Origin: a virus
Reading direction: 5' to 3' (one strand)
DNA: 64,000 bases
IMG/VR virus record: IMGVR_UViG_3300047678_000276
Span: 1 to 64,000 of that record
Positions 24,572 through 25,382 of this stretch are shown here, in pieces. The first letter of the stretch is position 1, and each line of letters starts with the position of its first letter. The position numbers and the translations under genes were made by a program. The notes under the pieces are model-generated. The model was not told the origin of the DNA. It searched no databases and saw only the letters and a program-made list of their open reading frames with translations.

Positions 24572-24637
24572 AGTTCTTGATTTATAAGAGGATAGAAATA
24601 TATTTTAAACAAACTTAAAAATTTATTTTGTTTTTGT

Positions 24638-24666
24638 TGTAACTTTTATTATCTTTGTACGTATAA
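24638..24666 (+). promoter_or_regulatory. class II promoter of the tRNA operon
   Basis: TGTAAC-N16-CGTATAA; spacer also contains TATCTTTG. Confidence 0.75.
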
Positions 24667-24706
24667 ATTGATAAGAAACAAAAATTTTAACTATTTAAAG
24701 ATATAT

Positions 24707-24779
24707 TGCGGGTTGGAGAAGGGGTTATCTCGAATGGCTCATAACCATTAGGTCGGTGGTTCGAATCCATCACCCGCTA
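24707..24779 (+). tRNA. tRNA-Met(CAT), initiator-like
   Basis: unpaired 1:72, GCGGGT/ACCCGC stem, AATGG-CTCATAA-CCATT arm. Confidence 0.85.
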
Positions 24780-24879
24780 CTAAAAGCCTGAAAGGGCGGA
24801 CACCTAAAACTACCCAATTAAAGCTAGGATATACAAACGGGGACACTAGTACAAGTTTAGGTTAAAGAAATTAAAAGAA

Positions 24880-24954
24880 ATGAACAGAATAATTAACATA
24901 TTAAATGAACGTGAGGAAAGCCAGATGACTGACCTCACTTCGACTATATGTTAA
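24880..24954 (+). CDS. putative 24-aa leader peptide MNRIINILNEREESQMTDLTSTIC
   Basis: A-rich leader, Glu cluster GAA-CGT-GAG-GAA, overlaps alternative hairpins and precedes a terminator. Confidence 0.6.
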   Translation: MNRIINILNEREESQMTDLTSTIC

Positions 24955-24978
24955 TTTAAAAATATAACTTATCAAGTC

Positions 24979-25012
24979 AAAAGGGTGGTCGCTAAGCGTC
25001 TGCCCTTTTTTT
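24979..25012 (+). terminator. attenuator-type intrinsic terminator directly before tRNA-Glu
   Basis: AAAAGGGTGGTCGC-TAA-GCGTCTGCCC-T7. Confidence 0.72.
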
Positions 25013-25017
25013 ATTAT

Positions 25018-25090
25018 GCTCCATTCGTCTAGAGGCCCAGGACGATGCACTTTCACTGCATAAACACGGATTCGAATTCCGTATGGAGTA
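25018..25090 (+). tRNA. tRNA-Glu(TTC)
   Basis: GCTCCAT/ATGGAGT stem; ATGCA-CTTTCAC-TGCAT arm. Confidence 0.9.
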
Positions 25091-25099
25091 CAAATTTAT

Positions 25100-25185
25100 C
25101 GTCCGTTAGACTAGCGGTTATGGTCGCTGTGCTTTCACCACAGTGTTTCGAAAGGAGCTCATGGGTTCGAATCCCATACGGACGA
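25100..25185 (+). tRNA. tRNA-Glu(TTC) with long variable arm
   Basis: CGTCCGT/ACGGACG stem; CTGTG-CTTTCAC-CACAG arm; GTTTC-GAAA-GGAGC variable stem. Confidence 0.8.
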
Positions 25186-25199
25186 CAATTTTAACATAT

Positions 25200-25382
25200 T
25201 TATTTGTATGAGTAAAAATTGCGCAAAATGTAACTTGCACTCAACATACGTCCGTGTACATTTGTTGGAATGTGTGTAGGACTGTCCTCAACAAGTGTTT
25301 TGCTTAGTGCTTTATTTTCTTTTGAGTAAGCACCTTTGCCGTCCAAGTATGTTTTGTCAAGTGGGGTTGATTTTCTTTTCAT
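25200..25382 (-). CDS. hypothetical protein (predicted leaderless, possibly truncated)
   Basis: ATG 6 nt after TCTAT. Confidence 0.6.
   Translation of the reverse strand: MKRKSTPLDKTYLDGKGAYSKENKALSKTLVEDSPTHIPTNVHGRMLSASYILRNFYSYK

Follow-up and report, generated by a model that had tools for sequence, protein, structure and literature searches.

Layout of the tRNA module

We analysed the initial 64 kb (the window; IMG/VR record IMGVR_UViG_3300047678_000276, positions 1 to 64,000) of a virus contig that is 76.3 kb long and has 33% G+C. From position 1 to about 53 kb of the window, nearly every gene is a small one on the minus strand. Within this block the opposite (+) strand carries three tRNA genes, one tRNA-Met followed by two tRNA-Glu, with 237 nucleotides (nt) between the tRNA-Met and the first tRNA-Glu. 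This interval, which holds a structured spacer, a short leader open reading frame (ORF) and an intrinsic terminator, is the subject of the present work, and we describe it as a candidate leader-peptide attenuator placed ahead of phage tRNA genes.

The + strand tRNA module is driven by a class II promoter, one of two promoter-type motifs of this phage. Neither motif was found in the spacer between tRNA-Met and tRNA-Glu, and the 5-nt gap between the terminator and the first tRNA-Glu leaves no space for a promoter there. The tRNA genes behind the terminator are for Glu only. The second of them has a class II-type variable arm with a 5-base-pair (bp) stem (GUUUC/GGAGC) and a GAAA loop, together with a C1-G72 pair; no + strand terminator was seen after it in the window. 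An earlier note on this DNA, drawn from the sequence alone, had listed a promoter, tRNA-Met, a 24-codon ORF with a Glu cluster, hairpins and a terminator just ahead of two tRNA-Glu(UUC) genes, and all of these were found where it had placed them (Table 1).

Table 1. Features of the tRNA module, in window coordinates (energies in kcal/mol)
Feature	Position	Strand	Remarks
Class II promoter, GTAAC-N16-CGTATAA	24639-24666	+	11 copies in the window against 0.01 expected; kept in L043, L044 and L045
tRNA-Met(CAU), first gene of the transcript	24707-24780	+	ARAGORN; 57.2 bits with the Rfam tRNA model
Structured spacer after tRNA-Met, 99 nt	24781-24879	+	91% identical to L043/L045; consensus fold
Long-range helix, 5′ segment with terminator	24790-24815 with 24983-25009	+	12 + 7 bp; window lineage only
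Leader ORF, 24 codons + TAA, MNRIINILNEREESQMTDLTSTIC	24880-24954	+	Open in all five versions seen
1:2 hairpin (predicted anti-antiterminator), 23 pairs	24891-24956	+	-21.1; spans the ORF
Putative regulatory codons GAA CGT GAG GAA (Glu-Arg-Glu-Glu)	24907-24918	+	The only three Glu codons of the ORF
2:3 helix (predicted antiterminator)	24930-24945 with 24975-24991	+	Minimum-energy fold with segment 1 masked, -11.7
Intrinsic terminator, 13-bp hairpin (24979-25009) + U7	24979-25012	+	-16.8; 5 nt before tRNA-Glu
tRNA-Glu(UUC) #1, ordinary class I shape	25018-25091	+	57.7 bits with the Rfam tRNA model
tRNA-Glu(UUC) #2, 87 nt, long variable arm, discriminator A	25100-25186	+	49.7 bits

A leader ORF with clustered glutamate codons

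The leader ORF has its own start and stop codons and lies between the promoter and the tRNA-Glu genes. It contains no Trp codon, and its Glu codons form a cluster ahead of the tRNA-Glu genes that would be regulated. Among the small ORFs of the 76-kb contig (15-45 amino acids (aa), six frames), at least three Glu residues within four codons occur in 1 of 500, presumably the leader itself. Some amino acid reaches that density in 37% of the contig's small ORFs, and the unusual part is therefore the match to the tRNAs behind. No comparable leader was found at the other tRNAs of the contig (Arg, Met, Phe), nor at distant loci with tRNA-Asp or tRNA-Ile.

Mutually exclusive pairings and stepwise folding

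The region covering the ORF and the terminator (24870-25017) folds at -37.9 kcal/mol, against -20.9 +/- 3.5 for shuffled sequences (z -4.9). The 1:2 hairpin is made of the pairings AAUUAACAUAU/AUAUGUUAAUU, UGAA/UUCG and GUGAGG/CCUCAC. Its pair list confirms that, as had been proposed, the Glu codons lie in the 5′ arm (segment 1) and the TAA stop in the 3′ arm (segment 2). The Glu codons stop 13 nt short of segment 2, and under the footprint masks a ribosome stalled on them leaves segment 2 free, whereas one at the stop codon covers it. Segment 3 (24975-24991), the partner of segment 2 in the 2:3 helix, takes in 12 of the 14 bases of the terminator 5′ arm. The terminator itself, 3:4, stands between the leader ORF and the tRNAs. 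The 1:2 and 2:3 helices are mutually exclusive in the window and likewise in two diverged relatives, L043 and L045.

The order in which these helices could form was examined in stepwise folds, in which the ribosome was modelled as a 30-nt footprint mask. If no ribosome is present, the 1:2 hairpin is already complete by the time segment 3 emerges, segment 3 is left free and the terminator forms. A footprint on the Glu codons makes 2:3 the fold of lowest energy for as long as the terminator lacks a finished 3′ arm. One placed at the stop codon hides segment 2, and again the terminator forms. The stepwise folds in the window, L043 and L045 support the trp/his-type geometry that the earlier note had recognized. 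They also bear out the competitiveness of 2:3, a second check set beforehand, which under the Glu-codon footprint is favoured at -11.7 in the window; in L043/L045 the pairing is stronger (UGGCUAU.CCUU with AGAGGAUGGUCA) and the whole fold reaches -17 to -21. The equilibrium probability of the terminator with the ribosome mask is about 0.95, a figure that we set aside because attenuators act kinetically, the stepwise folds being the relevant test.

Conservation in related loci

Three loci, L043, L044 and L045, were obtained from a metagenome scan using an alignment of the relatives (56-82% identity) of the 139-aa protein encoded beside the module. In L043/L045 the module consists of promoter, tRNA-Met, a 250-nt spacer, tRNA-Glu(UUC), a long-arm tRNA-Glu(UUC), tRNA-Glu(CUC) and a final terminator. 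Identity between L043 and the window is 97% over the 100 nt upstream, 92% in tRNA-Met, 91% over the first 99 nt of the spacer and 95% in the first seven codons, then 58% in the remaining ORF and terminator and 65% and 55% in the two Glu tRNAs. For L043/L045 together it is 91-97% through codon 7 and 55-58% thereafter.

Conservation of the ORF had been set beforehand as a check, and the relatives answer it positively. The L043 leader, MNRIINIETVVEREEETLMTGYTLC, has 25 codons, and its indels relative to the window (+6, +3 and -6 nt) are all in frame. Both L043 and L045 keep the ATG, a 25-codon frame and a stop within segment 2, with the same TGT TAA end in L043. They also keep the Glu run and enlarge it (GAA..GAA CGT GAG GAG GAA, 5 Glu of 25); the extra GAG codon accompanies the added tRNA-Glu(CUC), and three Glu tRNAs lie behind. 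An analogous long hairpin extends over the ORF. The terminator occupies the same position with a different stem (AAGAGGAUGGUCA / UGAUUAUCCUCUU), and its arms covary, cognate arms giving -17.7/-17.8 against -6.6/-11.2 for swapped ones. UGGUC is kept in the terminator 5′ arm though its partners differ.

Closer relatives, X3 and X5, were found in Logan contigs of public runs, among which no RNA dataset carrying the locus was listed. X5, from a lake water metagenome, spans 24735-25011 with 18 substitutions and no indel, and its long-arm tRNA is identical; X3 spans 24827-25001 with 6 substitutions. In both, the ORF is open and its Glu codons are untouched, within a conserved Glu island (GAACGTGAGGA) that is unchanged here and extended in L043/L045.

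The tRNA part of the module is more variable. In X5, tRNA-Glu #1 is replaced by 79 unrelated bases with the flanks intact (window 25012-25092), and positions 3678-3930 of L043 hold diverged Glu tRNAs, the added tRNA-Glu(CUC) and a closing terminator not present in the window. The long-arm Glu tRNA is found at the same position in L043/L045, where it is 92 nt long. Behind the conserved leader, then, the tRNA cassette is subject to turnover.

A query of the phage collection with 24600-25300 returned tRNA-level matches only, and a homologous locus was found neither there nor in IMG/VR. The same two sources hold no relative of the 139-aa neighbouring protein. Relatives of the 151-aa neighbour (L001-L041) carry no tRNA module, and the syntenic IMG/VR relative L002 has other genes at this place. 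Exact-pattern scans of viral contigs and genome contigs for the locus gave no match.

Matched leaders in an unrelated phage

The long-arm tRNA of the window matched LR756500.1, an unrelated uncultured 462-kb phage in GenBank, whose tRNA region was read from 58000 to 122000 (L075, L076); L046 was also read, from 2243 to 2385. LR756500.1 contains two leaders whose codons match the downstream tRNAs. The first, MKAISVHIIHIWEHLLEEVNINIM, has 24 codons, among them 3 His, 3 Glu, 2 Val and 1 Trp, and precedes His-Glu-Val-Trp tRNAs. Its terminator (-16.8) lies 23 nt from tRNA-His, and 1:2, 2:3 and 3:4 pairings are present. The second ends in TYPLGQAQTLGTPPITG, also has a terminator behind it and stands ahead of tRNA-Ala, which is followed by Leu-Pro, Tyr-Gln-Gly-Thr and Gly tRNAs. 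Among the 539 small ORFs of the LR756500.1 region, each of the two cognate sets yields a single ORF that reaches the score of the leader, presumably the leader itself.

As in the window, each of these leaders is a tiny ORF in the codons of the downstream tRNAs, followed by a switchable terminator near the first tRNA. They are multivalent, covering 4-8 or more amino acids, whereas the window leader is monovalent, with Glu only and only Glu isoacceptors behind it.

The tRNA-His and tRNA-Glu of LR756500.1 are both longer than 80 nt. The latter, a long-arm Glu tRNA of 85 nt, has the arm GUUG-GAAA-CAAC, which is compensatory with respect to the arm of the window tRNA and has the same loop.

A conserved 5′ domain and a long-range helix

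The spacer that follows tRNA-Met folds into a GCCU-GAAA-GGGC hairpin (24786-24797), an ACCUAAA/UUUAGGU helix (24802-24808/24856-24862) and a GCUAG/CUAGU hairpin (24823-24827/24846-24850), and ends at its 3′ side in an A-rich unpaired stretch that runs up to the ATG. A compensatory change from U-A to C-G (24825 U>C with 24848 A>G) is seen in L043, L045 and X5. No Rfam match was found for this 99-nt domain, and the spacer has no copies elsewhere in the contig or in the retrieved loci.

Positions 24790-24801 are complementary to the 3′ arm of the terminator, with a duplex energy of -20.7 against -10.8 +/- 2.4 for shuffles (P 0.001), and a G>A change at 24798 in X5 strengthens this long-range helix. 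The helix is absent in L043/L045, and a long-range closing stem as the true structure instead of the terminator was rejected on that ground. In the window lineage the helix may make termination less efficient, hold the transcript in the read-through state or give the released RNA its shape.

A probable attenuator of the tRNA-Glu genes

We consider it reasonably likely, on the strength of modelled folds and comparison of related loci, that the locus is a ribosome-mediated leader-peptide transcription attenuator gating the phage tRNA-Glu genes. From the anatomy, its conservation and the alternative pairings obtained in silico we infer that the ORF is translated, that ribosomes stall within it and that read-through changes as a result. 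Transcription would proceed from the class II promoter through tRNA-Met and the structured spacer into the leader ORF. When Glu-tRNA is plentiful or the ORF is untranslated, segment 2 would be held in 1:2 or covered by a ribosome at the stop codon. With segment 2 occupied, segment 3 would pair with segment 4 and RNA polymerase would terminate at U7, just short of tRNA-Glu. When GAA/GAG decoding is slow, the ribosome would stall at GAA-CGT-GAG-GAA in segment 1 and segment 2 would be freed. It would then pair with segment 3, the terminator would come too late and the polymerase would continue into the tRNA-Glu genes. The net effect would be negative feedback on the supply of usable tRNA-Glu.

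The earlier note had gone further and proposed an inducible counter-defence. In an extended form of this reading, a host defence that hits tRNA-Glu would stall ribosomes on the leader, and only then would the phage make replacement Glu tRNAs, one of them of a long-armed type that escapes attack. Possible triggers are cleavage by an anticodon nuclease, as with RloC, or collaterally by a Cas13-type system, and a toxin that interferes with the charging of Glu-tRNA, as with HipA. The presence of a long-arm tRNA-Glu next to one of ordinary shape makes the idea attractive. The same anatomy is explained by simple feedback on the supply of tRNA-Glu, and we regard such a damage sensor as a speculative and rather unlikely extension of the attenuator.

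A number of observations weigh against attenuation. The leader ORF has no Shine-Dalgarno sequence, although most genes of the phage lack one too. All four substitutions within the ORF in the close relatives are non-synonymous (I4V, N9S, T20A, C24R), a pattern that would fit a leader peptide of indifferent sequence and would equally fit a non-coding RNA, and 24949 U>C in these relatives breaks one pair of the 1:2 stem. The well-diverged lineages compared are only two, and chance survival of the frame is not negligible (on our estimate about 0.25 that no stop codon arises, multiplied by the odds that the indels are in frame). As to the 2:3 pairing that had been proposed, the named segments do pair when segment 1 is masked, but the window duplex, which is interrupted and weak, is barely above shuffles (-11.9 vs -8.0 +/- 2.3, P 0.06); for L043 and L045 the corresponding P values are 0.02 and 0.005. 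Segments 2 and 3 swapped between lineages pair as well as cognate ones, and the helix therefore rests on conserved bases (UGGUC, GAC) and not on covariation. At full length the terminated conformer is the more stable (-22.5 vs -11.7), so that the switch must be kinetic. Over the whole spacer of the window lineage, equilibrium folding prefers the long-range helix to the terminator whether a ribosome is present or not (P 0.98), a preference that the attenuator model leaves unexplained. Finally, the model assigns no role to the conserved 99-nt 5′ domain.

An alternative is that a plain terminator ends the tRNA-Met unit, that the Glu tRNAs arise from constitutive leaky read-through and that the ORF and its Glu codons are incidental. 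The module is indeed a mosaic, with tRNA-Met and the 5′ spacer conserved, the part after codon 7 exchanged or diverged and tRNA-Glu #1 swapped in X5, and this could mean that a tRNA cassette landed beside a pre-existing terminator. The marginal 2:3 duplex of the window points the same way, as do the abundance of hairpin/U-run terminators across the phage genome and the lack of a leader at most other tRNAs of LR756500.1. The 1-in-500 Glu run, its retention and growth where identity has fallen to 55-58%, the conserved position of the stop in segment 2 and the cognate leaders of LR756500.1 are all left unexplained by a plain terminator, which we judge unlikely.

Another reading, which we hold to be quite improbable, is a translation-independent RNA switch, in which a protein, small RNA, tRNA or ligand bound at the 5′ domain or segment 1 selects the fold and the ORF is untranslated. 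This would give a function to the conserved 5′ domain with its compensatory pair, and it agrees with the retention of UGGUC in the terminator 5′ arm, with the pairing of the 5′ segment to the terminator 3′ arm in the window lineage and with the lack of conservation of the peptide sequence. Against it stand the conserved ATG, stop position and Glu codons and the indels that keep the frame. Moreover, the long-range helix does not extend to L043/L045, searches with T-box and riboswitch models found nothing even at E up to 10, and UGGU is paired in the predicted 2:3 helix and forms no free bulge.

It is very improbable that the locus is in the main a gene for a small RNA or small protein, ending at its own terminator, whose short transcript or 24-residue peptide works in trans, for the peptide varies freely except at its start and Glu run. 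A terminated RNA running from tRNA-Met through the leader (24674-25012, about 340 nt) would be strongly folded (z -4.2), and for Sinorhizobium trpL small RNAs derived from the attenuator and leader peptides are known to act in trans (PMC6614838, PMC7298713), but such a product is compatible with the attenuator and both could coexist.

Genome context

The class II promoter motif, GTAAC-N16-CGTATAA(T), has a fixed length, and its copies are spread across the window from 543 to 53001; one also precedes the 139-aa gene (24316-24289, minus strand). The other promoter-type motif, TTTAAGTT-N15-TCTAT, stands before nearly every small gene, with 89 minus-strand copies in window 1-53200. About ten + strand copies lie back to back with a minus-strand copy and lead into a conserved geneless tail of the TCTATTGGTTGGCAC type. 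The Bacteroidota promoter consensus, TTTG-N18-20-TAnnTTTG, is weakly enriched (7 vs 3.1). A Bacteroidota host would suit the missing Shine-Dalgarno sequences and the A-rich leaders; given the weak enrichment, this phylum is a guess.

The Infernal alignment places a U1 x U72 mismatch, shared with L045, at the top of the acceptor stem of tRNA-Met(CAU), and the anticodon stem of this tRNA is without the three G-C pairs of the initiator type. The tRNA could be an elongator, an initiator-like or an Ile2-type tRNA. On the minus strand, a hairpin and T-run (25211-25240) lies at the end of a 60-aa gene (25382-25200) and probably halts transcription before it enters the tRNA-Glu genes in antisense.

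Significance and comparison with known systems

Attenuation by leader peptides is textbook knowledge, established for the genes of amino-acid biosynthesis and a few others related to them. To our knowledge it has not been known to control tRNA genes or to operate in a phage, and a full-text literature search returned no description of leader-peptide attenuators before tRNA genes or in phages. If the attenuator is real, phages would gauge how fast individual codons are decoded and tune the supply of their own tRNAs accordingly. Such a capacity would be relevant to the long-standing question of why phages carry tRNAs, whether for codon supply or for replacing tRNAs destroyed by host defences. 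With three or four regulatory codons for a single amino acid and two or three isoacceptor genes behind them, the window locus would be the simplest form of such a switch and therefore a clean experimental entry point; it also ties the switch to the long-arm type of tRNA-Glu.

Two described families of regulatory RNA resemble parts of the locus. The Bacteroid-trp leader (RF01692) is the only leader-peptide family that Infernal aligns over 24860-24990, at 21.2 bits (E 4.2), where the gathering score is 49. The likeness includes an A-rich leader, no Shine-Dalgarno sequence, an ORF starting M-(K/N)-x-I-I, a hairpin and a terminator beginning AAAAGG. Membership was rejected given the score below gathering, Glu in place of Trp codons and tRNA genes downstream, and the alignment is an architectural likeness. 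The T-box likewise responds to the state of one particular tRNA by choosing a terminator or an antiterminator fold, and the 5′ arm of the window terminator contains AGGGUGGU, which is similar to the T-box core. A T-box (RF00230) was also rejected, since neither the window nor L043 gave an Rfam T-box match even at E up to 10 and UGGU is paired, not bulged, in the predicted antiterminator. The T-box-like motif is not kept in L043/L045 (AGGAUGGU), and the locus has instead a conserved ORF that looks translated.

A functional parallel is E. coli pheST, where a Phe-codon leader attenuator precedes the phenylalanyl-tRNA synthetase genes. As would be the case here, a component of translation is placed under a leader with cognate codons and the signal is charged tRNA, not the amino-acid pool alone; pheST differs in that a synthetase is controlled rather than a tRNA, and in being cellular and not of a phage.

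In structure the locus resembles the enterobacterial leaders trpL, hisL, leuL, pheL and thrL, which also have their cognate codons on segment 1 and the stop near segment 2. We know of no Glu-codon leader in this classical set. The three exclusive helices, 1:2, 2:3 and 3:4, the last an intrinsic terminator, are common to both, as is an antiterminator weaker than the terminator, with a kinetic choice between them. In E. coli trp, for example, the antiterminator is about -12 and the terminator about -20 kcal/mol, and the terminated form is the more stable. Unlike the classical leaders, the present element belongs to a phage, lies downstream of another tRNA on the same transcript and has no Shine-Dalgarno sequence. 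Classical attenuators control biosynthetic enzymes, whereas here the controlled genes would be tRNA genes, so that the charged tRNA-Glu that is sensed would derive from the product itself.

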